A DNA stretch of 64,000 bases from Bilabrum cf. latius (GCA_965178125.1 OZ237738.1:248001-312000), one strand, 5' to 3'; shown: positions 6,001 through 43,976, numbered from the stretch's first letter. Notes: generated by a model from the letters alone, not told the origin. Translations and numbers: made by a program.

Positions 6001-6446
6001 CTGGAGTCGGTGAGGGTGGAGCTGCGGCGGCCGACAAGCCTCCCGCCTCCTCCCTGCTTGGAGGCAAGAGGACAAGGTAGGAGCGACGCGAGCAGGCAAA
6101 GACTTCCCCCATCCAAGCCGGGACAGGTATGCCGCCACCGCAGTCTTCTGCAGATCAGGCGCCGGGCGGGGGCTCGAAGCAGCTGCCATTTTCGCTGCAA
6201 GTCGTGCTTGAGCCAACGCCGGTGCCCGTCGGGCTTGCCGCGCGCGCCTCTTCTGCCACGCTGCTGATGAGGTCATTCAAGGTGGCTGAGATGCTTGTGG
6301 GTGCAGCCGGTCGCGCTATGCAAATCTAGTCAGCGTTCGAGCTCACGGCCAGCCCTTACGGGGGCGGTAAGCGGTCACCGGCGTACAGAAGCGGTGACAG
6401 CGGCCTGACGGATCCGGATGGATCCGCGGGATCGGGTGGGCTTTGA
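1..6446 (+). CDS. Zn(II)2Cys6 (GAL4-like) zinc-cluster transcription factor, 5' partial, >2,140 aa, possible PAS-like domain
   Basis: Frame starting at nt 3 reads [C]APCAKAKRQCDGDRPCARCVQRNHAHLCID (C-x2-C-x6-C-x5-C-x2-C-x8-C; the first Cys codon is cut by the window edge). The frame stays open through about 16 in-frame TAGs, joining ORFs 198, 951, 1674, 2169, 3516, 4020, 5511 and 6129, to TGA at 6444-6446. The motif YVWYSPSALQFL...FVWIHPDD at about 2400-2580 is PAS_3-like. Confidence 0.85.
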
Positions 6447-6597
6447 CCCGGGATCGTTTTTCCGGGATTGTTTGCTACGTAAACCAAACGTGTTGTAAAC
6501 TAGTATGTACACTACGGCCAGGAACAGGTCAAGATAATCTTCCTGCACGGTATGCATGAAATATCCAAAACAGATCTGGTCCAAAAGCACACGGCGC

Positions 6598-9303
6598 TCA
6601 GAACCTGAAGGTCGTGCTCGCACCCATAGCCCAAGGAAATTTGTCACGGAGCGTCTGGGGGAAGACCTTCTCGATCGGGCAGCTGTTGCGCTTGCACCAC
6701 GCGACGGTGACGCGGGGGTCCATGTAGTTGATCTTGCTGGTGCTCAGACTCACGTTCTTGGTGTCGTCCTTGTTCTTGAGAGCAAGCTCCTTCTTGCGGA
6801 TCCTATCCTCGTATGACTTGACCCTTCTAGTGACCGTTTCCGCGCTCGGCTGCTGGCCAAACAAGTGCGACTCGGCGGCTCTTCGCTCCTTCTGCAGGTC
6901 GGTCAGCTCCGAGGTCTTCTTGGCCCAGTGCGGCTTGCTCGAGTCCTTGAGCTTGAGCTTGGTACCCTTCTTGACCTAGTTTCGCATCGTCTTAAGCTCC
7001 TTCAGCTGCTTCTTGAGCAAGTCCAAACTGGCCTGCATCTTAGCTAGGGACTTCTCGAAGCTCTTCGGCACTGATCTCTGATGGTTGCACAGGATGGCCA
7101 CCTTCTTGTTGGCCCGATCGTACTCTACCTTCATGTCGTTGGCGGTGGCCCACGGCTTCATGTCGCCAATCTCGCGCTCCAGCGTAATCGACGCGTTGTA
7201 GGTACGGAACACCTTGGCCGAGAGCCCAGGCATGAGCTTATGCAGCTCATCGTTCAGCTTGCTGGGGTTCAGCTCGTCAAACACGTCCTCCTGAGGCTGC
7301 TTGCCTCTGCAGAAGCTGCGAATGTTCTCGTACACCTTGCGCCCGATGCGGCCGTACCGCCCGATGTCGAGGGTCTGAAAGAACCTCATAGAATCCTTGC
7401 CGAGGAAGTCAAACGTGATTGCGTACTGCTTCTCCTCGCCTGCAGCAGCGGCAGCTGAAGATGAGGACGACGACGACGACGACGACGACGAGCTAGCCCC
7501 GCCCGTAGCTGCAGTGCCTTCCATGTCCTCGTCCTCCTCGTCGCTTGGCACCGCATCGTAGTACACCTCTTCTCCGTCCATCTTCGGCGCCCTGGGCCCG
7601 CCATCCTCCTAAAACTGGATGTGTTCCACTCGCAGGGAGCAGCATCCCACCGTGTCCGCCTCGTCGTCGTCCTTCTCTCCGCCAACACGCAGCGCCAGCC
7701 GGTCGATGATCCACATGGCGGTGCCGCACTGCTGCTCAAACTTGTCCCTCGAGTCCAGCAGCCGCTCGTAGTGCGACCTGACGCGCCCGATGATGCGCGC
7801 AAGCTTGCGCGCCTTCTCGTACTTGTTCATGTCGCTCTTGCCCTTGAACCCGCTGCTGGCCGCCAGGTACACGTACTTTGTGCCTCCCATGACGTTCTCG
7901 CGCCAGAAGGCCAGCCATGTGACGGTCGGGTCGTGTATGACTCGGCCCCACTGGTGACCAGGGACCGGGCAGGGTGGCACGACTGCCTCTGGGCTGAGGT
8001 TGAGCGTGATCTGCTCGGGCTCCACCCTCCGCTTGAGCGTGCCCATCTTGGGGTGTACGCCGCGCCCGCGGAACAAGCTCGGCGGCTCGCACATGTAGTT
8101 GCCCATCTTCTGCAGGTGGCCGTCCACGATGGCGTACCCGTGCTTGATCTGCAGCTCCGTCTTGCCCGACTTCGCCGCCTCCTTCTCCTCCTTGGTCATC
8201 GCGTCCTTCTCCTCCTTCAGCTTTTCGAACCGGGACACGAAGTCCTTGAAGTCCACCTTCTGCAGGTCCTTGATCTTGTGGTCCCTTCCCAATGCCTGCA
8301 CATGGTGTGTTTAAGAGCGGTGGAAACAGAAACAAGGGATTGCACACAAGCAGTGGTGAGACCAGGAGCACCTTCACCATCTGCCCTCATCGCGAGCGGT
8401 GCTCTGGTTGATCACTCTGAACTAGACGCGCGCGGTTGGCATTTGATCCAGCGGTCTATTCTCTCACCTTGCTCCAATCCTTCCAAAAATTCTTTCTGAA
8501 CAGCCTGGCAGTCTCCTCCTTCTGCAGCTGCTGGATGTTCGTGTACAGGCACTGGGCGTACAGGTTGGCCATCTCCTCCTGCACGGGAGTCAGGCGCACC
8601 GCTTCGCCCTCGTAGTACACGGGCAATCCATGCGGCTCGTAGTCTGGGGGGAAAATCACGCCGGCGTGCTCCATCGTGGTCCAGTGGGTGCCAGCCGGAG
8701 GTTCAGGCTCGTCCCACCATCGGTGGGCTTGCATGGCAAGGTCCAAGATCTTCAGATCGCTGAGCTCCTTTACCTTACCGGTCCTAGCCACTACCTTAAC
8801 GCCACTAGCCGATTTAGATTTCGACTTCGACGCCTTGCTTGCTGTTTTCTTCCCTTTCGCCTTCGCAGAAGGCTTCTTGGCCGCCTTGGGCTTCTTTGCC
8901 GCCGGCTTCTTGGCTTTTGCCTTCCCCTTCTTCGCTGAGGCCTTGCTTCCGGACTTCGATCCAACTCTTGCCTTCTTCTTCGCGGGCTGCATTGCAAAAC
9001 AGAGTCACAGATGAGGGCGCCGAGAAGATATGCGAAACGGTGCGACCTCCAGGCTAGCTAACACCAATCGGGGTCATACTGGACATTCTTGCTCACCTTA
9101 GATGTCTTTGATTCGCCATCATCATCAAAATCACCATCCGAATCGCCATCCGCTCCAGGTCCGCTGTCGTCTGAGGCTTCGAAGTCGTCTTCTTGGCCGT
9201 CGCTTTCAGCATACGAGATTTGGTCACGCTTTCGCTTCCTTGACGACCCTTCGCTTCCCCCTTCCATTGGTACCTGATCCGAACCGGCACCTGAGCTGGC
9301 CAT
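6598..9303 (-). CDS. TOP1: DNA topoisomerase I (type IB), ~807 aa, 3 exons: 9303-9097, 8986-8468, 8295-6598
   Basis: Motifs [79 protein letters not shown] and catalytic SKINYMDPR. Two in-frame TAGs (7609-7611, 6976-6978) must be read through to reach the catalytic Tyr. Ends at TGA. Confidence 0.97.
7466..7491. repeat. (GAC)8 microsatellite encoding poly-Ser in a TOP1 insertion
   Basis: gacgacgacgacgacgacgacgacga on the + strand; TCG run on the coding strand. Confidence 0.9.
8296..8467 (-). other. Spliceosomal intron 2 of TOP1 (172 nt)
   Basis: AAG|GTGAGAG ... TGTGCAG|GCA joins NFWKDWSK to [16 protein letters not shown], matching conserved TOP1 spacing. Confidence 0.9.
8987..9096 (-). other. 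Spliceosomal intron 1 of TOP1 (110 nt)
   Basis: AAG|GTGAGC ... TTTTGCAATGCAG|CCC joins KTSK to PAKKKARV in frame. Confidence 0.8.
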
Positions 9304-9512: not shown

Positions 9513-12500
9513 TCACACACGAATGGAGCGTCCCAACTCGTGCGAGCCACCCACCGGCTGCCTCGCTTTGGTCCCGTCCACGTTCGCATTGGTGCTAGAT
9601 CCAGCGCTCGTGTCCGGCAGAGCCACCGGCTGCCAGCCTCGAGCCTGGGCCGCAGCAGTGCCAATGAGCGCCTCCAGTTCCGCGCGAGCAGCTGCAGCCG
9701 CAGCCTGGGCCTCCTCCTCCTCCTGCCAGAGCCTCGCCAGCCCGTGCTCCCTGCTCCTCCTGACGGACCCTGCGGAACCGGCAAGCGCCGCCGCGCGCTC
9801 GCGGTACACCAGCCCGCGGGCAAAGCACGCGTGCGCGTGCTCCGAGGACGCAGTCGCGCCCCCGCCCGCCTGCCGAAGAACCCTGAGCAGAGACAGTACC
9901 ACCCGCTCGGACGCCGCCAGCAGCCTAGGGGACGCGGGGCCCAGCCGAGAGGCCGCCTCGGCAACGTGCCAGGGGGCGCACGGGGACGGGCGCGCCGCCG
10001 ACCCACCCGCGCCGGATCGTCCCATCCTCCCAGCATCTGGACTACCAGCTGCAGTGCCAGCCATGGCTGCCTGCGTGCTGTTGAGCTGGGCAGTGGACGC
10101 CAGGATGGCGCCTGTCTAAGTGGACCCCAGGCCGAATCCACCCCGCGACCCCGCGCCGCCACTACCCCTGCTGGAAAGCTCCGCAGCACCGCCGCTGAGG
10201 ATCTTCTCGTGCGATTCCACGCCGCTCTTGCGACCGGCACCGCCCTCTTGCCCGCCCTCCGCATCGCCGACGGCACCAGCACCAGTCGGACTGTTCCTGC
10301 CCGTTGCCCGCCGACCCACCAGCCCATAAGCACCCTGCGAGGCCACGAGCGCGCCTCCATCTGCCATGGCCAGCAGGTGCGCATCGGGAGACAGGGAGCT
10401 CCCCGCCGCCGCCCGCCGCGCCGCGTCTTCGCCCTAGCCCCCTTCGCCGCCAAGCTGGTCCGGGAGACCCGCCGCCCTGGTCCGGCTCGCCTCTAGAGCG
10501 ACCGTTGCCTCAGGCCGGGTGGCTCGGTGCAGCAGCTGGCCAGAGGCCTCTGTCGCGCTGTCGATGGCCCGCAGGGAATCGACGCCCAGGCTCGTGCGCA
10601 GAGTCTCCGGCGAGGCTCGGCCGAGGGCACCAGCCGCGTGTCCGATCTCCCGACCGAGTTCCGCATCGGCGGCGCCGCGCCGCACGGCTCCCGGCAGCGA
10701 TGATCCGATCCCCCCGAAGGGTTTTCCCCTGGAGGATGCTCTCCTCCTCACGTCGGGGTCATCTGCCGCCTCCTCTTCCGCCTCATCTTCGCCCAGCTTG
10801 GACTCCCCGGCACCAGACCCGAACCCCACCAGCGCGCCGCTCGTGGCGAGCACGCCGCCGGTTGCATCGGGCAACGAGTCCCTGTGCCTGATGGCGGCTG
10901 GTGACCCGGGCGGCGCCCTGGAGGCAGCCAGGTGCTGCCCCGTCCTGGCCAGCTCCAACCCCACGATGCCTACCTGCTCCAGCCAGCCCTGGGAAGATGC
11001 GTCCCTTGTCACCCGCACGTTCAGCCTCTCCGCAAGCGAGAGCGGGGTCTGTCCCCGCCTGTTGTGCCGGAGCACGAGGGTGGCTCCCTGGTCCCTGGCT
11101 CCCAAAGCAATCGCTGACACGCAGTCGGGCCTTAGCGCACGCACCGCCGTGTGCAGAGGTGTGTCGCCCCACGCATTGGCCGCAAAAGGGTCGGCGGGCG
11201 CCCATTTGGCGCTTCGGGCTGCTTCTTCCTGCTCCTGGGTGAATCCAGAGGGCCCGGGCGAGTCGAATATCCCGAGCGAGCCGTGCACCCCCCGGCCTCC
11301 GACGCGGCCACGCAGCAGCAGCTAGCAGAGTCGGGCATGCCCGCGCGCAGCCGCAAGGTGCAGCGGTGTCCACCGGAGTGGCCCACACGGTGCGCTGGCA
11401 TCGGCCCCCGCGGCCAGCAGGTGCACAGCGGCGGCTTCACAGCCGGCGGCGCACGCAGCGTGGAGCGGGGTGTGCCAGTGTTCCAGCCATCGCACCAGCG
11501 GTGGCACACCCCCGCCCCTTGCCCCCGCACGAGCGGCCCCACCGAAAAGCCAGGCGGGCATCGAAGGATGCAGCGCGGCCGCAAGCGTCTCTCTCCGGAA
11601 CTGCCGAGCCGCAAACCTGCCGCGCTCGCCAGCCGTCGGGCTGCTCCCGCTCGGACCAAATGCAGACGGCGAGTCACCACCACCGGTCGCAAACATGGGG
11701 CTGCCGAGCGTGGGAGACTCGTTCCCTGCCGACAGGAATCCCGAGCCGCCCAAGACCTCTGCCGCATCAGTCAGGTCGCCCCCCATGGCTGCCTGCAGCT
11801 CCTCGGCCCAGGCAAGGGACAGCCGAAGGGAATCGCCGTCCGAGCCAGCAGCATCTGGCAGCAGGTCGAGGTCTAGCGACGGGCCCTCGCCCTGAGACCC
11901 AAGCACAGCCTCCAGCGACGGCTCATCGCCGCCGCTGCCAGTGTGGCTGCCTGCGTGCTGCTGCACGATGCGCTCAGCGGCAAGCGACCGCGAAGATCGC
12001 TCGCCCTCCGTTGCAGGCGAGGCTGTGGCGGCACCAGCACCAGCGCCAGCAGCAGCGGCTGCGCGCCTCCTCGCCTCCCTCTCTTGCCTCGCCTCCCACA
12101 GGGACCGCGAAGTCGCGAAGCTCAGCGCCCCGCGCGACACACCGGAACTGGCCACGACGGCGAGACCTGGGGGATTCGCAGTCGTGGGCTGCACCCAAAA
12201 GCCGGCCTGCACAGCGAGCCACACGGGCAGTTCTAGCGCCAGCGGCCCGCCGCACGCCAGGGCTGCAGCTAGCCGCCGCCTGTAGAGCTGCTCTGCGGCG
12301 GCCATGGGCAGCTTGCTCGGGCGGTCTTCCACCTTTTGCAGGGCCTGAAGAGCACCGCGAGCCGCAGCACGCAGGCTTTGCGGGTCCGCTGGGGAGGGCA
12401 TGCTTCGCTCCAGCAACGGGCCCCCCGCAGTCTGCGGCGACTCCGCCTTGATGGCCCGGCAAGCGAGGGCGGCCACGTGCCACGGACCAAGCCGCGGCCC

Positions 12501-15500
12501 GCCGCTCCCTACTGAAAATCCAGTCGCCACCCCCGACGCAGTCTCCTCGCCAAGCACGTGAACCAGCGTCTGCAGCTGGCTGGAGACCGCCCTGATCCAC
12601 CGCTGCAGCCCGGCGCTGCTGGCAGACAGGGCGCATTGGAGAGCCGCCTGGTCGGGGACGGGCGCCTCCTCGCTGCCGACCTGCAGCTGCCACGACACGG
12701 CCGCTCGAGGCAGCTGAGAGGCCGCCGCAGAACCGGAGTCACCAAGGTCCTGCACGGTGGCGCCAGCCGGCAAGGCCCGCACCCACTCCTGCGAAGCGGC
12801 AAGCACAATGTGCGCTGGACTCGCGTGCGAGCCGCCGGTGCGGCAGTCGCAGATCGCCCGTGCGCCCGGTTTTCCCTGCAGCTCCAGCGCGAGGCCGACG
12901 GCCCGCAGCATCATCGCTGCCCTGGCCTCGCATGCACCCGCAGCCAGGGACACGGCCTCGTCCAGGCGCTCGCGCGAGACGACCAGCAGCTGCGAGCCCC
13001 CGCTCGCGCCACCCGACGCGTCGGCGGCGCCGTCCGCTCCCACGCCGCCAGCATGGTACACCAGACTCCCGCTCCCCAAACCGGGAGCAGTCTCAACGGC
13101 CTCTGCAGAAGACGGGGGCACGCAGGAGCTCCCCTCCGAGCTGCCTGTCGGAGGCGGGGGCGCCAGAGGGGAGCCGAAGCCCTGCGCAATCGCCTCTGCC
13201 TGTGCGGGACTGACCCTGGCAGCCGACAGGCCGGTGCCCGCGTCCTCCCACCTGAGGCCTAGCTCCCACTGCAGGGAGCCATAGAGCCCTGCACCCGCCG
13301 CCACGTGAATCGGCGAGATGCCGTAGAGGTTTCGCTTGGTCATGGCGGACATCCTCGGCTTGGGCTGATGCAGGCCCGTGCCACCACGCGACGCCTCCTG
13401 AGATTCCTTGGTCTCAGCGGCCGCCCGCAGACCCCCTGTCCCGATGAGAGGCACCTTCCTCATCGCTGCCACACCGAGCTCATCGTGCCCTGGGGCGGTC
13501 GGAGGGATCCCCTCATGGCTGGCAGCTCCCACGCCCGACTGCTTGTCAGAGACAGACCTGGCGCACTGGATGGAGCGCGGAGTCAGCGCAGCGCCGACTG
13601 TTGAGTCAATTGCAGCGACAGCTGCCTCGACCTCTTCGGACGGCAGTGCAATGCCTGCTTTTCTAGCCACACCCCACCTATCGTCAAATACGCCCTCCGG
13701 CCAGGAAGCCTTGGGGCCCCTGGCGTTGGCTTCCGGCGTCGCCTTTGACGCAGGCTCGCCCTGCATGGCCTCCAGCAGCATCTGCAGCAGGCTAGATGGA
13801 CTCCAGGAACCGGCCGAGTCAGCCTGGCTGAAGGCAGTGGCATCAGCGGCACCTCCATCGTGCGACTCCAGCCCAAGCATCGCGACTGAGCCGTAGGACG
13901 GAACTGTCCCCGGCATAGAGAGCTCTCCTAGGTCGACCACATGCTGTAGCTCGTCCGCCCCGTCCATCTTCGATTCTTCTCGGGTGCTGAGGGCCGACTG
14001 AGCGGCAGGGTCGTCCAGCACGTCGGTGCGGAAGGACCGCTGCAGCGTGCCGCGCCTTGCATCTTCCTCGTCCTCATCGCAGATCGCATGCCCAGGCATG
14101 CCCAGAACCACGGTGCTCAGCTGCCTCTACGCGCTGCCTCGAGCCCCTTTGGCAGCCAGTGCCACGCGCAGCCTTCGCTCCCCTGCCCGCGCCTCGGAGC
14201 CCCCGTCCAGCATCATGTCGCTCATGTTCTCCTCCTCCAGCTTGAGGTCATTCGTGGGAGACTGCCAGCCGTAGCCCAGGCATGCAAAGTGTAGAGCGGT
14301 GTTGCCTCGGAAGTCGACGGCAGCCGCAGACACCGCGTCCCGATCGTGCCGCAGCAGAAGGCGCGCAGCCTCCACTGCTCCACTCACGAGACACCGCATC
14401 AGCGGGGTCTAACCACGCACGTCTCCTGTCCCGACGGGCACGTCCATCTGCAGCATGCTAGCAAGAGCAGCGCTCAGCTCGGGCGAGTTAGCCGGCATCC
14501 CGCGAATGCTTGCGGCGCACGCCCTGCTGGACAGGGTGCGGATGGTGGCGCTGCCAGCTGAGCACAGCCAGTGCAGGGCAGTCCGGCCAGTTTTGTCGGC
14601 GCGTGACGGATCGCAGCCCATCTGTACGAGTGCTACGACTGCCCTTTCGACGGAGCGCGGAGACGCGCGCACCTGCAAGGGCACCTCAAACCACTCGTTG
14701 TGGCTCTCCTCCTACCTGATCTAATGCCCCCTGCCATGCTGCTTGTTGCTGTCGCGGCCGTGCATCCGGCCCGTGGCTCGGTTGGCAGCGTCTGTCACTT
14801 CCCTCTGCCGACGAGCCGCGTGCCCTCGAGCCGCAGACCGCCGTGCCATGGCCTGAATCGCCAGCGCCGCCTCTGCCTCTTCGCTGCTTGGGGCCTGTCG
14901 GGACTCGTTTGGCGACTGCACTCCGGCTCGGCGGCTGCATGATGCCGACTGGCTCATGTCAGTGACGCTGCCATGGTAGTGTGAGGCAGCGCTCTCAGCC
15001 ATGCGCTGCTCCGACTCGGATGCAGGGGACAGATACGCCTGGCGACCGGGCAGACCCGACGAGGCAGCCCCCACGCGCTGCTCTGCGGCCAACGCGGCAG
15101 AGGCGGCAGATCGGCTGGACGGGCATGCGATTGCGTACACGAGGACGGTGCGACCCTCCGCGTCTCTAGCATCGAGGTCGGCACCCCCCAAGGCAACGCA
15201 CGCGATGGCAGAGTGCACCGACCCGAGAGACAGGGCGGCCATCGCCGGCGTCCGACCGAGAGCGTCCCGAGCATTCGGCGAGCCGCCACTTGCGAGCAGC
15301 AGCTCCACCAGCCGCGGGCCCAGGCCACTGGACATCGCGTGCACTGCAGCGTGCAGCGGGCTCAGCAGGCCCGCCCCGGCGCTGTGCCTTGCTGCCTTTG
15401 GACACAGCGTAGGCAGATCCTGGGGAGCGAGTGCGGGCAGGCTTCCAGCGAGAATGGACGGCTGCCATGCCAGACCCAGCCTCGGACAGGGGGTCTCTAT

Positions 15501-18500
15501 GCACAGGAGAGCGCCCCAAGACGAGGCAGAGGGCCCTCGATGAGGGTCCCTCACTCCGCGGACCGCAAGACCCGTCGCAGCCCCGTTGGCGGCAAGTTGC
15601 TACACCTCATCGCTTTCCATGCCTTGCAGGGTCTCTTTCGAAACCGGTACTGCCCTTGCCCTGTACTCCTCACTCCTCGCACGACCGCGCGAAACCAGCT
15701 GAACCACGAGCCCGACCGCCTCCCGCCTGAGGGCAGCGACCAGTCTGGGGCGCCAGACCGCCACTGAGACAGAGCCGGCCGCAGCAGGAGCCCCTCTGCT
15801 CGAGGTCCTCGCGGCAGCAGATGTGTCCAGTGCACCAGCATCTGCGAGGCACTCCAGGTGCCATAACGGCGGGGTCTTGCTGTTGCCACTGCCTCTTGCA
15901 GCAATGCTTGCTGATGCAGAAGCGAATGCAAGCGATGGGTCTGACTCCACGACAGCCTCTACCACGTCAGACACCGTGGCTGGCAGCAATGGAGCGGGCT
16001 CACAGGTCCTTACAAGACCAATGGTATGCAACCAAGAGATGCCTGGCACTGCCGCCTCGTCCCTTGGCGGCCACGAGTATCGCCCATCGGCTGCACTGGC
16101 GGCTAGCTGCGGCTGGGGAGACAGGATTCTCCCGCCAGCCTGCATTCGATCCAGTGCCACCTGGCTAGGGCCCACGCTCGCGAGGCAGCGGCTGTCGATC
16201 AACGCAGGATAGGAGCCCTGAGGCGCGCACGGACCGGTGCAGCCGCACCCGGCCAGTGCCAGGACTTGCGCAGAGCTGCAACTCTGCACCCACTCGTCGG
16301 TGCCCTCCTCTGCGGTAGCACCGGAGGCATCTTGATCGGCAGCACCCGAGCGCTTCCCATGCCCAGCAGCCGCAGCTGCCACCGGCGATTCCTTCGATGG
16401 TGAGGCGGCCCAGGCGCCCAGTAGCTCCATGGCAGCCTTCGGCCCATCGGCTGAGAGGACCGCAAAATCTATGTCCGCTGCCTCCGACCCATCAAATGAC
16501 TCGAAGTATTCAGGGGTCCCTGCTTGCTGCGCAGCTCCCGCGAAAGGAAGCGGTGCCTCGGGCCACTCCACGGCGGCAAACAGACTCTGCACGCCACCTG
16601 CAGCCATGATCCAGGCTGCAGACAGGTCTGCAAGCAGACAATTCCTCCCAGAACGCACGGGTGCGGGACCCACCGCGAGTGACCGCAGCCCAGCGACTCC
16701 TAGACGAGCCTCTGGCAGCGGGAAGCGAGCCGCAGGACTGGCCTGCGCAGCTAGCAGCAGGGGGGCAGCGGCAGCGTACAGAGCACCGCCCACAGCTTCA
16801 GCCCTGGAACGGTCGAGCTGTTGAGCAAACTTGCGGGCGAGTCGCCACCTGAGACGGCCTTGCACCGGTACAACGTCCATGGGGGCGTCATCTCCGATTT
16901 TCCGCCGCCTCTCCTGCTCCCCCTCGTCGGCGCGATCAAAAAGCTGGTCCGAGACCTTCTCGTCCGCAGCTCTGAGTGCCTTCGCCCTTGCCCTCTCCCT
17001 GTCGCTTCTGGACTCCCACTCGCTGCACAGCATCCCGTCAGCTCGGCGGCCTCCGCTAGGGCAGTCCGCTCTCAGCGTCTTCCAAGCTACTGGCACTGCA
17101 AATCGGCGAGAGACTGCAAAGGGGCTCGTGCGCAGCTGCAAGAGAGCAAGACGAGTCGCCTCGGGATCCACAGGCAAAGCGTCGGATTCATCCTGCTTGT
17201 CCTTCCCTTTCCCCTTCCCTTTCGCGTCGGCTTTCTTGGATGGCTTCTTCTTAGCGTCCTTCTTGCCCTTACCGCCGCCCTTTTTGCCTTTGCCACCCGA
17301 ATCTTCTGCGGCATCTGATGCAAGAGCGGCGAATCGCGTCGCGCGCCGTAGCTCTGCAAGCACGACCCACTCGCTGCTCGGCGACGACTGGAAAGACGCC
17401 CAGCCCAACTCAGCGGGGAAACATGGACCCAATGCAGCAGAAGAGGTCCCAGATGCAAATGCTTCGCCCGTCTCTTCGGCGGTGGCAACGGCCGCATCCC
17501 CAAAGCAAGCCTCCACGGCTTCAGTTTCATCCACCTCGGCGCCGCCTGCTTGCATCCGATGGGTTACCTCCTCCACGCACCCGACAAAGGCAAGGGTGGC
17601 TGCGTCATGTACCACGCAAGCAGCATGAGCTGCTACACGTGCGCTCGACCCCTCGCGCTGTGACCCGGCTCCACTCGCTGCCTCGGCATCGTCCCCGCCC
17701 TGCGCACCAGAGCCTCCAGCAAGATCTGGGATCGGCGGCATCTGTCCGTCCAAACTATCGATCAGGTGCCAGCCAACGCGCCTGGCACGCGCAAACGAGC
17801 TCGACATGGACCCTTCTGGGAATGCTCCAGGTGAAGAGCGGCCAAGGCTTGCAGCCACTGCGGCATCGTAGCCCCCTACAATTGATGTGCCGAGTGCCTC
17901 AGGGCCGGCCACTTCTTGGTGCCAAGCGCAGGATATGTCAGGCCCCAGCTCAGGTGCTTTAAACCAGGCGTGGCACGCCCCGCTCTCACCACAAACTGCA
18001 GCTACCGTTGCCTCGGCAGCTGACCTCACTCCTGCCCGCAAGACAGCAGTCTGTCGCTCTGACACTGTGGTGTCACCATCTTCAGCCACGGGCAACAGCG
18101 GGCGCGGCCACTACTGCTACCCACCCTCGCCTGAATCACGACTAGTTTCCTCGACGCTACCACTTGTCTTTGCTTCGCTGGGAATGTCCTGCGTCTCGAG
18201 GCCAGCCACCCACTCGGACCTCGAGCCCAGGCCGTGCATGGACACGGCTGCGGCACACCAGTCTGTGCCAGACTCGCGAGCAGCCTCTAGCCCAGCTGCA
18301 ACTTGGTTCTCATAGCCTAGAGCACACGCAGATATCAGCGCATCTTCAGCCCACACGCGCAGCCACATGGGCTCGGCACCTGAGGAAGCCGTGGAATGGG
18401 CCTCGAGAGCCCGCCAGCTCTCAAGCTGCTGCCCCGATGCCGTCTCGATCTCTTCCAGCAGCGCATCTGCCGCCTTTTCGATTCCAGCTGTCAGTTCTTC

Positions 18501-33859: not shown

Positions 33860-33904
33860 GTCAACTTCCTAAACTTCCTATTGTTGCAGGGCACATGCGG
33901 CCAG

Positions 33905-36900
33905 TCACAGATCCTCCGATATGCTGCTAGGCTCCCGGGAGGTGGACGTGCTTCCAAGCACCTTGGGCGGCTTGGGCGGCACTGGGACCTTCTCAGCCGA
34001 ACGAGCCAGCTCGCCTCCCATGCCAACCTTCTTTCTGCCTCTTGATTGCCGCGCTGCACGGAGTGCCTCAGCGCCTGCCTGCGCCTGCCTGTGCAGCATC
34101 TAAGCAAGCACCGACGGGGGCGGCGGTGGCTCCACAGCCCGAACCGGCACCTCGATCCGCTTCTCAAGCGCAGCAGCCGTGGCTCCCAAATGGCCCTCAT
34201 CCCCCGAGAAAGTGTCGCCCCCTTCACCCTCTACCTCCCGATGCTCGTCAAGCTCATCGTCCGACGCTTCAGACTAGGCATCTGCGCTCCGGCTGCCGGA
34301 ATTTCGGGGGCTTCCCATCGCGCTCTGACTCCCCGACGCGAAGTGTCGCCTGGGCACGGCCATCTCCATGTCCTCTCCACCACGTCGACCGCCGCCGGTT
34401 GACATGGATCCGGAAGTTAGCATGCCGAGTTGGCCTTCTGATGCAATGCTATTGCTTCGAGACCGCAGATCGCCGAGCCTTACGGCTTTCGGGCCGTCTC
34501 GAGACATGGCAGCACCAGCGGACAGGATCGATCCGACGTCTACTGAGGTGGCAGACCCCCCTACCTTACCGGCAGCCGCGCCGCCTCGACTGCTATCGGA
34601 CGACCGAGAGCCGTCCCTGGACTAGCTGCCCGCGCTGCGGCCGAACAATGCACCCATCATGCGGCCCTTCGCAACGATCTTGGTGCCGGGCTTCACCAAC
34701 GGTGTTTGCTGGAACTCCATGGCCAGCAGCTGGGACGCGCCCGGCGCCCGGCCACTGGACGAAGTCAGCGAGGAGTTGTCCCCACTGTGGCCCTTGTTGT
34801 CTGCGATCGAGCTCTGCTCGAGCGCGCGGTCTAGCGTATCCATGTCCATTTGCTAGTTGCCTCCTCTCCCCGCGCGCGATCCCTCCGCCGATACCACAGA
34901 CCCAGTCGCAGAGTGTGCGTCCGTGCCGTCGAAGTTAGTCGATTCCGTGCAGGGGGCCGCGCCAGCGATAGCAGCGGAGGGGTGCCCGTATGGGTTGCCG
35001 CCCGTTCCCCTTGGTGTCAGGCTCCTGCCCAGAGATGAGGAGGGTGAGCCGCGCACGGCCCGGCGGTGCCTTGCATTGCCAGCCACGCCCAGCAACCTTC
35101 GCTCGCGGCCGCTCTCTGTGCTTACCGATGGCCTGCGCAGCACTGCTGCGGAACTCGGCAGCATGTCTCCCGAGGCGCCGCTCGCGTTCGACAGCAACCT
35201 ACGGACGCCGCTGGCTGGCGAATCAATGCCGCCGCCCCCATGGCTCTGATCAGAATCCATCGGCTGCTGCCCCGCGGCGGACTGCCGTACCCGTCTTTCC
35301 CTGGGGAAGAAATCGGAGCTTGCCGCCATGATGTCGGAGCTCGTCCAGCCGATGGGCGGCTCCACGGCGGGTCGGCCGCCGGAACGGCCCCCAGTAGAAC
35401 CTCTCGGCGAGTTGTTTGCAGAATGGCCTGGTGTGTCCCCGCCAAGCAGGTTGCTTGACGGGGTCTAAGCCGCACTGGTGCCCGGATCGAACGAAGTGGT
35501 GGCTAGCAGGCCAAGCCTGTCCTTCGCCGCACCCTGCACCTAGCTGGTGCGCTTTGATTGCTTCTTGCCTGGTCCTCCATTCCCACGGATCGGTCTTGAT
35601 TGCCCGCTTGCTTGGCTGCCGTGACTGGACTAGCTCCGAACATCCTCGTCTCGAAGTGCCTGCGCTGCCAGCTCGCTCAGCGGTGTGGAGTTGGAGTGCT
35701 GGCTGCCCCCGTCGTCGTCTGCCTGCCTCTGTTGCGCCGCCCTCTGCCTGCTGTTGTCGCTATCGTTCAGGTGACCCGACCGGTCTCCCGACAGCGACGT
35801 TGACTTGGTGCGGTTCTCAGAGGCAGTTGTGGAGCGCTCCTCGCTCTCGGCGCTGTGGGGCACAAAGGCCAGTGAGCCTGCCATTCTGGACTAGCCCCCA
35901 CTTCGATTGGACGATCCCTTACTCCGGTTAGGGACTGCCATGAAGGCCAGCGCATCTGCCACGATAGCGGTGCTCGCATCGGCGACACCACTCCGAGAGC
36001 CCACCGTCGACGAGATGTCGCTCGTCCGACCGCCACCTCGCTCCGTCTGACTGCGGGAGGGCAGGTCAGCGGGGAGGCCGTCCGAGCCGAGTGCACCCAG
36101 CTGCTGCTGCTAGCCTGATCCCCGCGACATGCCCGCAAGAGGCAGCTGAGGGACGAGGGGCGCTCCATTCGCGCTGGATCTTGCTTTTGCCTCGCCCCTC
36201 TGCTCCCTGCCGAGTCCCTTAGACCTGCTCGAGGTGGTGGTGGTGGCTCCATCCGACCGACTGTCGTCGTCCTGGTTGCGAGCAGTGAGGTCGCCGCCGT
36301 GAGGGCCTCGAGATGGGGAGTCCAGCTAGTCATCTGCCAGCTCGGCCAGCGCGACCAGTCCACTGGCGCCATGTGGCTTCTTCTTTCCGTGCGATTGCTG
36401 GCTCGGCAGGCTGCCGACAGATGCTGTTCCAATGCCCTGTGTCCGCAGCCTGGCCATCGTGGCCTCTCTCTCTCTTCGCTCCTCATACTGCTGCTCTAAA
36501 GTGCGCCTGCCCAGCTCTGCAAGCGCGAAGAAGTTGTGCACGCTGTCTATCTCCGTCGGTGCGGCGCTTGAGGAGCCTAGCGTGCCCTCGGTGGCGAGCA
36601 CCATCGCCGCGTCTGCTCCAAGCGGACCCACCCTGGGGAGCAAAGGCTGTGAACCGGCCCCATGGCTGCTGGATCCAGCAGAATCTGACGACACCGCTTG
36701 CATGCCGCCCCCATCCGCCAGCGTCCCAAGGTCGTCTGAGGACTCCACATACTACCGCTGCGGGAACCCGAGCATGCCCATGGGCACCGTGGAGCTCGCG
36801 CTGACAGCTTGATGCATGGGTGCCCCAGCCACTGCATAGCTGTGCACAAACTGCGGCTGGGCGCTCACCCCGATTTCTCCCTGGAAGTCCACGCTCATGG

Positions 36901-38569
36901 TCAAGGGCCGCGGCGGCTGCTAGACGGCAACATACACGGGAGGCGCGCCGCCCTGAGGAAACCCTTGGCCTGCGACCGCGAACATCTGTCCACTCTCGGA
37001 CACCATCATCGGGCCTGATACGTGACCCATCTGCATCCCCATGTTGGCGCCAAGTGGCATCACCCCCGCGGAGGTGGGATACCCAGGCATGCCCATGCTG
37101 CCGTGCTGCGGGAGTGCCCCGCTCATGCCCGTGTACGATCCCTGGAGATTGACTCCGCGCAGGACCGAAGTCAGCTGCTCCACAGAGAGCCCGCTGACAC
37201 CCCCGCTCGAAGCGTACACGACATCGGTTCCCGACTGCAGCAGCTGCCCGTCGCCGGCCATCTGCGACCGGGCGAACTGGGCTTGGGTCAGCCCTGCCGG
37301 CGGCACGCTCGCGTCGGGTAGCTGTGCCAGGGCCAGAGCGGCGTTGCGCCGCTTTACGGGGCTCGACTCCTCATCACCCGCTGGGTCAGCGGCGCGGCCA
37401 GAAGAGGAGAAGGCGCCTGCCCGCACCGTCCTTGGTCGGCCCGTGCTGCTGCTTCGGCTCCCCGACGCGCTTCCCGACTTTCCACGGCCGCGACCCCGCC
37501 CCTTACCCTTGCTTGACCCTCCCCTGCCACGCCCTCTGCCCTTGCCCTTGCTGGCGCCCTTCGCTGGCGCCACAGGTGCTGCCTTGAGCCAGTCGAGCTG
37601 ACCCGCCTCCGCCTGCCTAGACAGCGACTTGTACCTGATCTTGACTGCGTTCTCTGTGCGCCCAGGAAGCCGCTTGGAGATGGCGGCCCATCTCTGCCCC
37701 AGTTCCTCGTAGTGCGACATGAGGGCCTTGTCTTCCTCCAGCTGCCACGGCCCCTTGTTAATGGAGGGGTCCAGGTGGTTCTTCCACCTCTCCCTGCACT
37801 GCTTGGCCGTGCGACCGGGGATTAGAGCGGCTGCTTCGCCCCAGTTCTTCATCCCCTGCTGCACGAGGTTCAGCAGTCGGGAGTCTTCCTCCTGGGACCA
37901 GCTGCCTTTCACCAGACCGGGGGCCAGCACTTTGCGCCACCGCTGCAGGCACTGCACGTGGTTGCGTCCGGGCACGTGGCCGGAGATCGCCTTCCAGTTT
38001 CTGCCGCCGAACTTTGCCACTGCTACGCGAAGCATTTGATCTTCCTAATCCGTCCATTTCATGGCATCTCGACGCCTCTGGCCTAGGGGGTCCTTCGTTA
38101 GGTCGTCTTCCCGTCCCTGAGCTGACGGCGCAGCCGAGCTTGCAGTCCTCCCTGCTCGGCCTCGCCTCGGAGCCTCTGATGCTGACGCTCCAGATGCAGA
38201 CGGTGCAGAAGCCATTAAAGAACCGGCTTGGTTTGACTGCAGCAGCTTCATTGCGTCCAACGGGCTGCTACCGGAGGAGACAGCGGATGGACCACCAGTG
38301 GCTGCAACGGCTGCGGCGCTTGCTGGCATCATATCATCGATGTTTCCAAGTGAGCCAATGCTTCCAGTGCTCTAAATTGGAGCACGCGGTGCGGGAGCAC
38401 TGCCTGCGCCAACCACAGACTCGGGCGCATCAGGAATTTCGCCGGCTGCACCACCATCAGCAACCCTTCGTGATGTGCTAGGCCTCTCAGAAGAAGAGGT
38501 TCGCATTGAACCAGGCCTCTCTCGCTTGTCACCAAGTGATTTACCCACATCGTCGTGGGGAGCAGACAT
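33905..38569 (-). CDS. R1R2R3-type MYB transcription factor, ~1,554 aa
   Basis: Three MYB repeats: KWTD*EDQML...NWKAIS...GRNHVQCLQRW, KGSWSQEED...GRTAKQCRERWKNHLDPSINKGPW, WQLEED...RWAAISKRLPGRTENAVKIRY. ORFs ending at 38372, 38045, 36920, 36326, 35630, 34853, 34622, 34274 and 33905 are all in one frame with about 14 TAGs. TGA at 33905-33907. Confidence 0.88.
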
Positions 38570-38931
38570 GCCAAACCGTGGTCAATACCTGCAAGGCCGC
38601 TGAGTCCCAGTGGTGGACGCGCTGACTAATTTCAGGAGCCAGCGCGGATTCCGCTCGAGAACCGTGTTCCCCTTTAAGACTGAATAGAATAAGGATATAT
38701 GCTTAGTTGTATTTGATCACCTGCTAGCAGAAGCACTTCTCATAGGTACTGTTTTCCGGCACCTCGCATATCGTTGGTTGGCGGTGCTGTGCGTTTTTGC
38801 GGAACCATCTAGAACTTGAAAATTGCGCGGCGACCTCAGGGAAATGGTATTCTTTTCTCTCCACTGTGCACTTGGCAAGGCCTCCTGCGCCAAATTTTTT
38901 AGCTTAGAGGATTAAGCGATAGGGTGTAGCC
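38570..38931. promoter_or_regulatory. Putative bidirectional promoter (3R-MYB / LysRS)
   Basis: 362-nt AT-richer spacer between divergent start codons. Confidence 0.55.
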
Positions 38932-40962
38932 ATGGAAGCAGGAGGATCCGAGAAGAAGATTGATAGGTCTGCGGCAGATGCCGAGGAAGCCGAGGCAGCG
39001 AAGCTCGGAATGAGCAAGAAGCAGTATCGCAAGTACCTGAAGAGGCAGGAGGCCGACCAGAAGAAGGCCGAGCGAAGTGTCAAGCAGGCGGCATCCGCAA
39101 AGAAGGGTGCTATGGTGAGCGAACTGCGCGGTGCCGAGTACACTGCGCATCGTGCCAAGGTGTACAAGGCTGCGGTGGAGAAGGAAGGCCAGCCCATGTA
39201 TCCACACAAATACCACGCTACCATGTTGCTGCCAGACTTTGTCGCGAAATACGACCCCCTTGCCGAGGCCGGAAAGGAGGTGGAAGGAGCAGAGGAGGCG
39301 CTGTGCGGCCGAGTTCTCCTGGAGCGCCGGCAGTCGAAGAAGCTTTTCTTTGTCGACCTGCATGCAGATGGCGCCAAGGTCCAGCTGATGATGAACAAGG
39401 CATCATTCAGGGACCCGGCGGAGTTCGACCGGTACTCGAAGCTGGTTGCCCGAGGAGACATTGTGGGCGCCAGGGGCGTGCCATCGCGCACCAAGCTTGG
39501 GGAGCTCTCGCTGTCCGTGCGGTCCGTGACCATCCTGTCGCCCTGCCTGCACCAGCTGCCCAGCTCCGTGGTTGGCATGAAGGACAAGTCTATTCGGTAC
39601 CGCCAGAGGTACCTCGACCTCATGGTGAACCGCTCCACGAGGGACATCTTCACGGCGCGCGCACAGATCGTCAACTTCGTCCGGAGGTACCTGGACGAGA
39701 GGCACTTTGTCGAGGTGGAGACGCCCATGATGAACATGATTCCAGGCGGTGCGACTGCGAAGCCGTTCGTGACCTACCACAACGACCTCAAGATGGATCT
39801 ATTCATGAGGGTGGCACCCGAGCTCTACCTCAAGATGCTCGTCGTGGGAGGGCTGGACCGAGTCTACGAGATCGGGCGCCAGTTCAGGAACGAGGGTATC
39901 GACATGACGCACAACCCCGAGTTCACCACGTGCGAGTTCTACATGGCCTACGCGGACTACAACGACCTGATGACGATGACCGAGGAGATGATCAGCGGAA
40001 TGGTCAGGGAGATCCACGGCACCACCAAGATCAAGTACCACCCCGACGGTGAGGGCGAGGGGAAGCCCGAGATCGAGCTGGATTTCACCACCCCCTTCCC
40101 CCGCGTGCCGCTGGTGGAGGGTATCGAGGAGAGGGGCGGGTTCAAGATCCCCCAGCCGCTCGAGTCCGAGGAGGCCCGCAAGTTCCTGGACGACAAGTGC
40201 ACGGAGCTCAAGATCGCGTGCCCCGCGCCGCGATCCACTGCCCGCCTGCTGGACAAGCTGGTGGGCTACTATATCGAGGACCACATCGTGGAGCGACCGA
40301 CGTTCATCATCGACCACCCTGAGCTCATGTCCCCGCTAGCCAAGTACCACCGCTCCAAGCCGGGCCTGACCGAGCGATTCGAGCTGTTCATCGCGGGCAA
40401 GGAGGTTTGCAACGCGTACACAGAGCTGAATGACCCCGCGGTGCAGCGGGATCGCTTCATCGAGCAGATGTCCGCCAAGGCGGGTGGCGACGATGAGGCG
40501 CAGCCGCACGACGAGACCTTCTGTAAGGCGCTCGAGCACGCGCTGCCCCCCACGGCCGGCTGGGGCATGGGGATCGACCGCATGACCATGTTCCTCACCG
40601 ACAAGAACAACATCAAGGAGGTGCTTCTGTTCCCCGCCATGAAGCCCGAGCTCGGCGGCAGGGGCATCCGGGACCTGGATCTAGGCACCGCAGACGGAGT
40701 GCGCGCCCTCGACGACTTCCTCCGGGTGGAGGGGCGTCTATTCCTGGGAGGCGCCAAGCCAACCAAGCTGGACGCTGATTCCTACGACGCCATGTGCAAG
40801 GCGCCGGAGGAGGACGTTGCCAAGTGTGCCAACGCGAGGGCTTGGTTCGACATGGTTGGCGCGTTCACGTCTGCGGTGCGCAAGTCCTGGGCGGCAGAGA
40901 AGGTCGAAGCAGCCAGCGGGGCCGGAACTGACGGCGGTGCTGCCACTGGCGGAGGCAAGTGA
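38932..40962 (+). CDS. KARS1: Cytosolic lysyl-tRNA synthetase (class II), 676 aa, with a C-terminal extension
   Basis: YPHKY, OB-fold anticodon domain, [80 protein letters not shown]. No internal TAG; ends at TGA. Confidence 0.98.
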
Positions 40963-41144
40963 GCTGCATAGGGACTGTAGGTCCTCGGCGGATTGTTCGT
41001 GCGTGCACGTATCTCAGACGCGCGTAGGCCTCAGCTGCATTGCGGCCAGGCCGAAGCCGCGTCTGAGTGGATGGTGGTTTATCATACACATTAAGTTCGA
41101 ATACGAGCTTTGATTGCATGCTCAACGCGCTGCTCCCACCACCC

Positions 41145-43976
41145 TCACAATGGCAGCGTGCCATCAGGCCGCTTCAGGTCTCCAGCACACGCCCCTCCTC
41201 CTACCGCCCTCACTCTCCGGCCATCCATGTCCGCTTCCACGGTGCCACGGAGCAACTCGGCATCTGCTGATCCACTTGCAAAACGCAATTTTGCGTTCGC
41301 ACTGTGCTCTGCTGCTTCCTAGATCAGGTCAGACAGCGCCACGGGGGGCCTCTCGCCACGAGGGGAGACCCGCTCCCCTGTTGGGGTGCGGGACCACCAG
41401 TGCACGGCGAACGACTGCTTGTAGTGCTCGCAGCAGCCGCCGCCCTTCTCGTAGTGCGCGCACCCGAGCTCACGCAGCTCGTCTCCGTCCTTGTACCGCA
41501 CCGGGTACATGGTCTCTTGAGGCAGGATCGCAGCAGCCCACATGCCCTCCTCGCCCAGCGCCCGGCGCAGCAGCCTCGGCCCTGTACTCCAGTTCGGGCT
41601 GTCGAAATCCACCACGGCCTGGCTGGCGAGGCTTACGGCTCGCTGTGCGACTGGGTGGCCTCTGCTAAATCCGAAAAAACCGTTCGACACGCTCTGCCAC
41701 ATGCCCTCGTCGCCGTCCTCGTGGCAAATCACTGCGCCAGACAGCCTTGTAAACGCGTCGATCGGCCTGCACAGCTCAAAGTCTAGGTCCACGTAGAACC
41801 CTCCATGTCGCATGACAGCGTCGAGTCTCATCAGATCGGCTTTCTGTTCCGGGGCCTTTGCAGCGAGGATCTGATGCTTAAGCGCAGCAAAATGCTCGGG
41901 AGCTCCTTGCTCTCGGTTCAGGTCGCGATCTGTCCAAAGCATGACCGTGAAGGCAGGATGCCGTCGCATCCAGCTCCGCATAGTCTTTGCTTGTGGCCAC
42001 GGCATTGAATCGCTGCCGATCCACACGAAGTGGAGGATGCGTGGGACGGCCGGGACCCGCAATCCCATCCAGGCCGGTGGCGGCGCGATCACAGCTTGCG
42101 GACTGAAAAGGGCGCGAAGGCTACGCGATTTCTTGTTCGAGCGCCCCGATGTCATCATATGCTACGCGTCATACGTGACATGCCACCGGTCCAACGCCTC
42201 TCGGCGCAGCTCGCAGCCGACCGAGTCATCATAGTCGGGGTTTTCTTCCAGCTTTGAAGCTGCCCTGTGAAGCGCGGCAAGCCGAGGCCGGGGAAACCAG
42301 GGAAGGGCGTCAACGGATGCCGGCGACAGCGCGCGAATTCTGCACCCCGCCGAAGAAAACGTACTAAACGAGTCAGATTCACCGGTGCAGAGGCCGCTTG
42401 CAAGTATATCGTCGTACACGCTCCTGATTGCCAACAGGGCAGCTGGGTCCGCCGATGGAGGCAGGTGCTACCAGCTCGACCGCAGTTCCCTGCCAGCCGT
42501 CCATGCCCGCATGTGCCGTACATCGCTACTTTCAGCATATGAGGCGGACAAGTTCGCAAAGAAAGCCCGCCCACGAGCTGTTGCAGCAGCAGCGGAACCC
42601 AGCTACAGCAGCCCATGCAGAACAGCCCGACCAGCAATTCCTCCCCTTTGACCTGCAGCGTACCACGGAACGATGCCACCTGCACTTCTCTCCAGCCCCG
42701 CGACAAGATCTACGTTGCCAACCAAACCAAGAGCCTCGTCAAGTCGACGCGACAACTCCGGCGATGCACCGGCAGTCGCGAGGATCCGGCTGCCACCGGC
42801 AAGGCAGCTGCCGCCGCGCTCAATCACGAGGGCAACGCAGAGGGCGTGTACCTTGATGCTGTGCGGGGCTTGTTCTAGCCAGCGCTCCAGAGCAGCCGCG
42901 TTGACGTCCTGCTCCCCCGTCACTGCGGCTCGCAGGGCTCGCACGCCCTCCTGCCAGTCAACGATACGGATATTTACGTTGGCTGGGCTGTGGGCCCGGA
43001 GGTCCACCTGCATGCGACGCATGCAAATAGATGTGTAACTCGAATGCATCTCTGGGGTACGCAGCAAGTGAATGCTCGTGACGCCGTGGGTGCTGCTTGG
43101 CTCGAGGTGGCCGTGGTGTGGAGCACCGTGCTCCGGCCCCGTGCTGAGCAAAGCAGGCGGGGGCCACGGCACCGAAAGCTGCATCAGGGTCCCTGGCTGC
43201 ATCCATCTGTACATTTCGATGGCTAGCATTCTGCGCGCGATGTACTCCATGGGCTGGACGCCGCACCTCCACGGCAGGGCTTGGTCCAGCAGGGCGCGGG
43301 CAGCGGCAGGGGTGAGCACGTAGGCCGCGCCCATGGCGGCAGCACTCTCCGAAGTGGGGAGCATTGCACCAGGCTCAAATCCGAATGTAGGTTCATTGAA
43401 CCTAGCCACCTTTGCAGCCGCTCCATACTGTTTCCAGTGTATGGCGGCCGACAGACGGTGTGACAGCCGCAACGGTGCAAGACTCAGAACAATCATGTTG
43501 CCCAAAGCTGGCACCGGTAATGACTGCATTGCAGCTATTGAATCAATATGCGACCAGTTTCCAACCACTATCAGGCTTGGCCCTTTACGTGCGGCTGCTA
43601 TTCTCCAGCTCTGAATGTGTTGGAAAGCAATGCGAACACTTGACGGGCAGTCCTCGGCCCACCCCGCCGCAATGGCATCAACTTCAGCTACCACTGGAAT
43701 ACTTGGCAGACAAATTGTTGAAATTGATGCCCTGTCGCACAGTATCTACGGCCTACCATCGTAACACTGGAGCTGAATACACTAATCTATGTGCAATCGC
43801 TTCGAGCGATTCTTTGAGCCAATAAAATGGTCCACTTCAGGGCTGAACCTCAGAAACCATACAAGTATAATACAAACTAAGGCAAGGATAGAGCCAAGAA
43901 TTGTCTGAAGAGAAAGAAAATTGCGGTTGGTTTGGAACGACCTCTTTGAACCCCAATATCTGCGGGCTCCCCCCAT
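41145..43976 (-). CDS. Type II membrane multidomain glycosyltransferase with a C-terminal GT32 (DXD, Gly_transf_sug) domain, ~943 aa
   Basis: N-terminal TM segment ILGSILALVCIILVWFL. C-terminal VPRILHFVWIG...KADLMRLDAVMRHGGFYVDLDF...TGPRLL...FAVHWWSRT. ORFs ending at 43782, 42603, 42162 and 41319 are in one frame joined by 6 TAGs. TGA at 41145-41147. Confidence 0.82.

Follow-up and report, generated by a model that had tools for sequence, protein, structure and literature searches.

Which codons end translation, and what does UAG mean, in an organism whose long reading frames are interrupted by TAG? The question is raised by a 64,000-nucleotide stretch of the assembly of Bilabrum cf. latius (GCA_965178125.1 OZ237738.1:248001-312000), hereafter the window, with positions counted from its first letter. 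Read with standard stops (table 11), the window is a patchwork of open reading frames (ORFs), the longest of 944 amino acids (aa), and the long frames are split into many fragments. When TAG is read as sense, about ten large eukaryotic genes occupy nearly the whole window and the longest ORF reaches 5,598 aa. The guanine-plus-cytosine (GC) content is 0.57-0.68 per 4 kb, and the DNA is nuclear and comes from a eukaryote whose GC-rich genome is densely packed with genes. We consider it likely that the cytoplasmic code of this organism, whose lineage groups with stramenopiles, reads UAG as glutamine (Gln) in a table-15-like manner, that UAA is not reassigned, and that UGA is the main stop.

UAG, UAA and UGA in the reading frames

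All long frames together hold 100 TAG, 1 TAA, 604 CAG and 150 CAA codons, and TGA occurs solely at ORF ends. We then defined a strict coding set of 19,463 codons, from which untranslated regions (UTRs), candidate introns and stop codons were taken out. In this set TAG occurs 90 times, CAA 146 times and CAG 587 times, with no TAA and no TGA, while the two off-frames of the same stretches contain 31 and 64 TAA and 303 and 388 TGA. In-frame TAG is present in 11 of the 12 counted coding stretches, the exception being the gene for lysyl-tRNA synthetase (LysRS; tRNA, transfer RNA). The number of TAA to be expected if this codon were coupled to TAG was taken from the A:G ratios of four codon pairs, CAA:CAG (0.25), AAA:AAG (0.19), GAA:GAG (0.26) and TTA:TTG (0.10). 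These predict 22.4, 17.4, 22.9 and 9.4 in-frame TAA respectively against none observed, with probabilities of finding none from 2e-10 to 8e-5, and UAA is therefore not sense. UAA is shut out of the reading frames as strictly as UGA, UAG is not, and the decoupling of UAG from UAA is real. An earlier reading of this DNA from sequence alone (the sequence-only reading) had proposed this decoupling and had noted that in-frame TAA is lacking from about 20,000 codons in spite of regular use of CAA; the counts of the strict set bear out both statements.

The genes that carry these codons are, in order along the window:

Gene A, 3..6446, plus strand: 5' end open; 2,147 aa; no Pfam family; 16 in-frame TAG; stop TGA 6444-6446.
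Gene B, 6598..8310, minus strand: last large exon of DNA topoisomerase I (TOP1); 570 aa; TAG at 7611 and 6978; stop TGA 6598-6600.
Gene C, 9513..26309, minus strand: 5,598 aa; ankyrin repeats near the C-terminus; 21 in-frame TAG; stop TGA 9513-9515.
Gene D, 26544..29714, minus strand: RRM protein; ORF of 1,056 aa; 4 in-frame TAG; stop TGA 26544-26546.
Gene E, 30078..31667, plus strand: ORF of 529 aa; 4 in-frame TAG; stop TGA 31665-31667.
Gene F, 31672..33831 (ORF 31411..33831), plus strand: RING-finger protein; 4 in-frame TAG in the counted part; stop TGA 33829-33831.
Gene G, 33905..38581, minus strand: three-repeat Myb protein; ORF of 1,558 aa; 14 in-frame TAG; stop TGA 33905-33907.
Gene H, 38932..40962 (ORF 38626..40962), plus strand: class II LysRS; 676 aa; stop TGA 40960-40962.
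Gene I, 41145..44039, minus strand: glycosyltransferase-like; ORF of 964 aa; 6 in-frame TAG; stop TGA 41145-41147.
Gene J, 44833..63999 (frames from 44758, in pieces), plus strand: giant LamG/pentraxin/cadherin gene; about 20 in-frame TAG; runs off the window.

Conserved sequence or domains lie beyond the last TAG in five of these genes (A, TOP1, C, D and F). TOP1 matches Pfam Topoisom_I (8.8e-83) together with Topoisom_I_N and Topo_C_assoc, and its alignment to human TOP1 crosses both TAGs and reaches the conserved SKINYMDPR C-terminal region and the C-terminus. The RRM_1 match of gene D (1.1e-36) has its best stretch at 543-599, downstream of the last TAG. In gene F (zf-RING_2, 1.2e-11), the TAG at 33655 immediately precedes the second RING-H2 motif (CSHVFHKDC), so that translation of the gene must pass it. 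Gene G matches Myb_DNA-binding (2.4e-40), gene I Gly_transf_sug (1.3e-9), and gene J Laminin_G_3 (7.4e-72) and Cadherin (9.9e-71); gene E has no homologue or Pfam match. The coding sequence of LysRS contains no TAG, the five TAGs of the longer ORF all being upstream of the ATG.

These TAGs are found again in independent assemblies. Four runs (X1, X5, X6 and X7), which stem from three studies, gave contigs that match genes G, H and I without a differing letter. Those of X5, X6 and X7 over 36500-38767 leave the gene G TAGs at 36754, 36922, 38047 and 38374 unchanged, and those of X5 and X6 over 41208/9-44012/48, in gene I, show no other letters. As the ten TAGs of G and I that these contigs span are unchanged, they are neither an assembly artefact nor editing sites.

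The sole TAA in frame with a long ORF lies at 53641-53643 in gene J, inside a candidate intron that is followed by others in the same gene:

Candidate intron, 53596..53712, plus strand: 117 nt; GTAAGT donor at 53596, phase 0; acceptor tttttcccgCAG ending at 53712.
Further candidate introns of gene J, about 54602-54684, 54799-54884, 56245-56347 and 56596-56692, plus strand: similar borders and GC dips.

The GC content of 53596..53712 is 0.47 against 0.58 upstream, and stretches of 60 nt with GC below 0.45 are few in the 19 kb of gene J and lie mostly at candidate introns. We searched the read-through translation of the intron region against 1.84 billion representatives. One gene call of a relative, P0267 (74% identical), ends in ...YTYQLYAVS, two residues inside the candidate intron, and another, P0269 (82% identical), starts with MLALFDSQ/SGYNYYAF just ahead of the intron's end. 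The 33 residues between them had no match among these representatives. Four runs aligned to 36500-56490 gave no splice joint, cover being thin at 53596-53712. A Pfam search over the J/J2 junction with TAA as X returned a weak Laminin_G_3 match from profile position 42 (E 0.012, below the cut-off). With splice-like borders, a dip in GC and a relative's gene calls that break at both borders, the intronic position of this TAA, as the sequence-only reading had it, is supported but not proven.

Gene ends, the residue at UAG and the relatives that share the code

All nine visible gene ends are TGA (6444, 6598, 9513, 26544, 31665, 33829, 33905, 40960 and 41145), just where the sequence-only reading had placed them. 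On a codon-usage score trained on the window's own coding sequence, the 50 codons after TGA are non-coding at each of the eight stops tested (-0.16 to -0.54). The stretch from the last TAG to TGA, in contrast, scores as coding in all eight genes, with frame 0 best and at most 1.3% of off-frame windows as high. Gene E has a weakly scoring tail (-0.004), in which frame 0 is still the best of the three; for gene I the score is 0.028 in the tail and -0.535 beyond the TGA. UGA is never sense, serves as a dedicated terminator and is by far the commonest one. That nine of nine genes end in TGA is not in itself significant evidence against termination at TAA.

A metagenome scan with TOP1 as query returned only two contigs, L001 (6,725 bp) and L002 (3,665 bp), from one related species with a GC content of 0.55. 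L001 has the gene order of the window, the end of C being followed by TOP1 and then by the end of A, which converges on TOP1. The L001 TOP1 is 83% identical to its window counterpart, C 58% (over 434 aligned C-terminal residues) and A 49%. Its 1,669 codons contain 9 in-frame TAG and no TAA (CAA:CAG 18:42). Its C and TOP1 genes end in TGA and its gene A ends in TAA, and apart from this gene end TAA is absent from 21,132 in-frame codons (19,463 + 1,669). The L001 TAA is the first stop-like codon of its ORF and lies within about 10 codons of the window orthologue's end, so it is likelier to be a terminator than a stray sense codon. On this argument, which is one of likelihood rather than a demonstration, it is much better explained as a terminator.

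Because a relative seems to end one gene on TAA, UAA most likely still terminates and is rarely used, and the exclusive use of TGA in the window is probably an effect of sampling and GC content. The sequence-only reading had described TGA as the only terminator, which stands for the window and probably does not stand as a property of the code, given that one of three gene ends in L001 is TAA. It had not decided between TAA as a rare stop and TAA as an unused codon, and the same gene end tilts the answer towards a rare stop.

The residue inserted at UAG is best read from TOP1. One TAG of the L001 gene falls in a column where 118 of 119 homologues have Gln and where the window codon is CAG. P0131, the L001 TOP1 protein as called in public data, ends exactly at an in-frame TAG, at an invariant Gln position. 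At another TOP1 site where TAG is paired with Gln, the codon alignment reads CCC CAG ACG in the window and CCG TAG ACT in L001. There are 18 orthologous sites at which one partner has TAG; the other partner has Gln at 5 of them, and no other residue occurs more than 3 times. These five comprise a window TAG against CAA (gene A), a window CAG against TAG twice (TOP1), and a window TAG against Gln in P0122 and in P0124. The gene A site is the TAG at 6327, which aligns with CAA of L001 in the context RAMQI_SA[F/Y]EL. The Gln sites have the best-conserved flanks among the 18, and glutamate (Glu) and serine (Ser) occur at none of them. The two TAGs in the TOP1 gene of the window itself are at variable positions, both in the human alignment and in the homologue columns, and do not identify the residue. 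The support from this comparison of few sites is moderate, and we regard it as very likely that UAG encodes Gln.

The window contains no 18S gene. The organism itself was placed with TOP1 and LysRS, each in a single-gene tree obtained by a short search; for TOP1 the tree was built from top-ranking hits only, with one animal as outgroup. Among the best 120 TOP1 hits, the named matches are all stramenopile (oomycetes, diatoms, Triparma, Epipyxis, Phaeomonas and Mucochytrium) except for two rows, one from a nematode and the other bearing the label Alexandrium but, in the tree, identical to Thalassiosira. The TOP1 tree joins the window to L001 with a Shimodaira-Hasegawa-like approximate likelihood-ratio test (SH-aLRT) value of 100, inside an 11-row group of mostly uncultured sequences (86). 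This group stands apart from the ochrophytes (99), the oomycetes (100) and the group of the labyrinthulomycete Mucochytrium quahogii (95). For LysRS, proteins 99% (P0002) and 88% (P0003) identical are present in public assemblies, and the best named match is Bicosoecida sp. ms1 at 61%. A LysRS scan of genome contigs gave 80 loci, bacterial by their titles, at most 54% identical and left out of the comparisons, and a scan of viral contigs gave none. The organism is probably a stramenopile, most plausibly a heterotrophic deep branch, without a close named relative. The sequence-only reading had found this GC-rich genome unlike the known UAG-only lineages and had suggested that its code may have arisen independently. 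The organism groups with stramenopiles and not with fornicates or ciliates, so the simplest view is that the code arose separately from those of the lineages already known to reassign UAG alone.

The next six TOP1 relatives (P0132-P0137, 48-55% identical) have public gene calls that span 98-99% of the query length, and that of L001 is cut at a TAG; the code change would thus be confined to the clade of the window and L001. The change is common to the window organism and the relatives whose proteins are 82-88% identical to its own, and it is probably absent from the next nearest lineages, at about 55% TOP1 identity. It looks like a separate and fairly recent origin.

Mechanism and competing explanations

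How could one of the two codons be captured without the other? Section 9 of PMC5304391 reasons that a tRNA reading UAG and ignoring UAA must carry the anticodon CUA, and that the release factor eRF1 must lose affinity for UAG. Because we follow the reasoning given there for Iotanema and exLh, we infer the same two changes here. A tRNA-Gln with anticodon CUA would pair with UAG and not with UAA, and it would be a single anticodon change away from tRNA-Gln(CUG). In eRF1, recognition of UAG would be lost or weakened, and recognition of UGA and of at least some UAA would be kept.

Several observations weigh against this account or parts of it. ARAGORN runs on the window, L001 and L002 returned no tRNA gene, and Rfam at gathering scores gave no match in the window or L001. 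The genes recognised in the window and the related loci include neither eRF1 nor glutaminyl-tRNA synthetase (GlnRS), no genome-wide search having been made. The LysRS tree is poorly resolved and sets the clade on a long branch, inside a stramenopile-rich group, beside the rhizarian Guttulinopsis and an environmental row (84). The window itself contains no TAA terminator. In L001 the TAA of gene A is followed by a TGA 12 codons on, and the 11 codons between score 0.045, a value as low as which is found in 27% of coding windows, so that the test does not discriminate. At 13 of the 18 TAG-aligned sites the partner has a residue other than Gln (alanine 3; lysine, Lys, 2; glycine 2; arginine 2; phenylalanine, aspartate, threonine and leucine, Leu, 1 each), and most of these sites lie where conservation is low. 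Of the five TOP1 columns in which a TAG occurs, four vary. Finally, the TAG in Myb repeat 1 of gene G (KWTD#EDQML, with # for TAG) stands, on visual alignment, opposite Glu of repeats 2 and 3 of the same protein.

Of the explanations that compete with the proposed code, the one that survives best takes UAG as Gln and UAA as effectively unassigned, being neither translated nor bound efficiently by the release factor, which leaves UGA as the sole working terminator. The nine TGA among nine gene ends and the absence of TAA from 19,463 codons speak for it, as do the back-up TGA behind the L001 TAA and a codon test that gives no proof of a stop at that TAA. Changes in eRF1 that weaken the reading of UAG often weaken that of UAA too, which also counts in its favour. 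Nine genes are a small sample at a GC content of about 0.7 at third codon positions, however, and a TAA close to the end of its orthologue far more probably ends the gene than stands there by chance, unread. Moreover, the UAG-only codes described in the sections of PMC5304391 and PMC11687900 drawn on here all keep UAA as a stop. We therefore judge a code without any working UAA to be unlikely.

A context-dependent code of the type found in Condylostoma, karyorelicts and Blastocrithidia would read UAG as Gln internally and as a stop near 3' ends, so that some apparent TGA ends would in truth be preceded by a terminating TAG. A weak hint of it comes from gene I, whose X5 and X6 contigs end 61 nt before the TGA and 111 nt past the last TAG; convergent genes also lie only 74-182 nt apart, hence their 3' UTRs must be short. 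Against this stand the tails between the last TAG and TGA, which score as coding in frame 0 in eight of eight genes, and the conserved sequence or domains that A, TOP1, C, D and F keep past their last TAG. Positional reading of UAG is very unlikely on these grounds.

It is also highly improbable that UAG is a sense codon for a different residue, for example Glu, Lys or Leu. Such a meaning would sit well with the 13 non-Gln sites and with the Glu opposite the Myb TAG, and codes in which UAG means Leu, Ser or Glu are known (PMC11687900, in the part drawn on here). Yet the sole invariant column hit by a TAG is the one with Gln in 118 of 119 rows, and Gln is the commonest partner over the 18 sites (5, in the best contexts), with Glu at 0, Leu at 1 and Lys at 2.

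An ordinary ciliate-type code (table 6), in which UAA would be rare merely through GC richness, is barely credible: UAA and UAG do usually change together (PMC5304391, in the part drawn on here) and A-ending codons are under-used here (CAA:CAG 0.25, TTA:TTG 0.10), but even the strongest avoidance of A, that of TTA:TTG, still predicts 9.4 TAA (P 8e-5) and CAA:CAG predicts 22.4 (P 2e-10), the sole in-frame TAA falls in a candidate intron at whose two borders the gene calls of a relative break, and L001, with a GC content of 0.55 and a CAA:CAG of 18:42, also has no TAA against 9 TAG.

Genome organisation and comparison with known codes

The proposed code, with UAG as Gln and UAA kept from sense, operates in a very compact genome, with few and short introns (83-117 nt). 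Convergent stop codons lie 151 nt (6446-6598), 74 nt (33831-33905) and 182 nt (40962-41145) apart; at distances of 74-182 nt the 3' UTRs must be very short or overlapping. In both organisms one or more short introns seem to interrupt the 5' part of TOP1 (window 8311-9512; L001 2567-3028), and the ORF upstream of the conserved TOP1 core runs from exon through junk to exon again. Gene C is one unbroken frame of 5,598 codons, rich in alanine and glycine and with repeated lysine-glycine blocks of the KGKGKKGK kind; ankyrin repeats are found only near its C-terminus, and no further family was recognised in it.

LysRS has no TAG in 676 codons and all 16 of its Gln codons are CAG, whereas in neighbouring genes 10-16% of the presumed Gln codons are TAG. 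This absence is not significant alone (P ~0.15), and it would fit avoidance of a new codon in a highly used gene. The protein carries a C-terminal extension of about 100 residues past the catalytic core (window 40600-40962), which is kept in P0003; brown-algal LysRS homologues carry an EF1_GNE domain (PF00736) in its place.

Contigs of X5-X7, runs for which an RNA origin is only a guess, end near gene borders in the manner of transcript assemblies, and we take neither these ends nor depth as evidence of expression. In gene I, those of X5 and X6 (from two studies) reach the gene's 5' end and stop at 41209 and 41208 respectively, the last TAG being at 41321. A GTGAGG lies at 41213-41208, and both a last intron and an early 3' end are possible there, neither fitting well. 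We rejected a last intron at 41213..41130, which would lead to a TAA stop at 41093, as it is GC-rich and without a pyrimidine tract and the tail scores as coding.

Gene J exceeds 6,000 aa, with its 3' end beyond the window, and seems to be present as several diverged copies or alleles. Its summed contig depth in run X1 is 17-45 against 9.4 in the adjoining genes, and runs X5-X7 differ from the window in this gene mostly at sites three bases apart. Shorter relatives of it were limited to 3 fragments among 8,000 scored candidates.

The closest counterpart of the proposed code is that of Iotanema spirale (Fornicata; Panek et al. 2017, PMC5304391), in which, as in the window, UAG alone has become Gln and UAA is not sense. 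For Iotanema a tRNA-Gln(CUA) and an altered eRF1 are predicted in the part of that paper drawn on here, and we propose the same mechanism for the window organism by inference. The two differ in their terminators, UAA being primary in Iotanema and, according to section 9 of the paper, dominant in both exLh and Iotanema, whereas the window organism uses UGA at nine of nine ends and its relative at two of three. They also belong to different supergroups, the window organism grouping with stramenopiles and being GC-rich (0.57-0.68). The phyllopharyngean ciliates Hartmannula sinica and Trochilia petrani, and with them Protocruzia tuzeti, likewise use UAG widely as Gln and retain UAA (PMC11687900, as far as the part drawn on here goes). 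In them 86.9-98.3% of genes end in UAA, which is argued in that part of the paper to fix UAA as a stop; in the window none of nine does. The GC content of Phyllopharyngea is given there as 27.4-53.6%, so that the window organism, which is no ciliate, is the more GC-rich.

NCBI table 15 (Blepharisma nuclear code, TAG = Q) yields the same window proteins as our translation and leaves the long frames all open. It is a formal description that is silent on the use of terminators, and the organism is unrelated to Blepharisma. Table 6 (ciliates, hexamitins and ulvophytes) shares UAG as Gln and differs in UAA, which is not sense in the window (0 of 19,463 codons against 9-23 expected). The decoupling of UAG from UAA in a nuclear genome is further shared with the rhizarian exLh (UAG as Leu) and with Scotinosphaera (UAG as Ser), from which the window and its relative differ in having Leu at 1 and Ser at 0 of the 18 TAG-aligned sites and Gln in the invariant column.

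These three lineages, Iotanema, exLh and Scotinosphaera, are among the UAG-only cases in the parts of PMC11687900 and PMC5304391 drawn on here. The others listed are phyllopharyngean ciliates (Gln twice, and Leu), Protocruzia tuzeti (Gln) and a ciliate, PL0344, in which UAA means Lys and UAG means Glu. What the sequence-only reading had stated of known reassignments agrees with these parts of the two papers, and no stramenopile is among the cases listed in them. We found no nuclear code variant, UAG reassignment included, for a stramenopile in the open literature, and papers elsewhere could hold one. Where 'stramenopile' and 'genetic code' matched in PMC12152300, PMC13768787 and PMC11412368, the matched passages are reference-list entries only, and in the matched text of a 2024 overview of stramenopiles 'genetic code' stands solely in a mitochondrial reference.

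UAG as Gln without reassignment of UAA is thus a known kind of code, met here in a lineage where it is apparently undescribed. There is also a slim possibility that we are seeing the first nuclear code change in stramenopiles in a form in which UAA is all but abandoned and UGA is the sole working terminator; if true, this would be a eukaryote with one stop codon, or an intermediate between the standard code and one in which UAA and UAG both mean Gln.

UAG-only reassignments are rare exceptions to the joint change of UAA and UAG, and each independent origin adds to the evidence that the translation machinery can separate the two codons; the present case would add a new lineage at the level of a supergroup. 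Where UAA dominates as terminator, as in Iotanema, exLh and the phyllopharyngean ciliates, this has been taken as a reason to regard it as 'locked' in that role; here UAA is scarce. As UGA does nearly all the terminating in this GC-rich genome, UAA is not protected by heavy use. The lineage therefore offers a natural experiment on two points, namely whether UAA becomes sense in the wake of UAG and whether codon capture driven by AT pressure is required at all. In practical terms, gene calling with the standard code cuts short most proteins of this clade, as the call P0131 illustrates.

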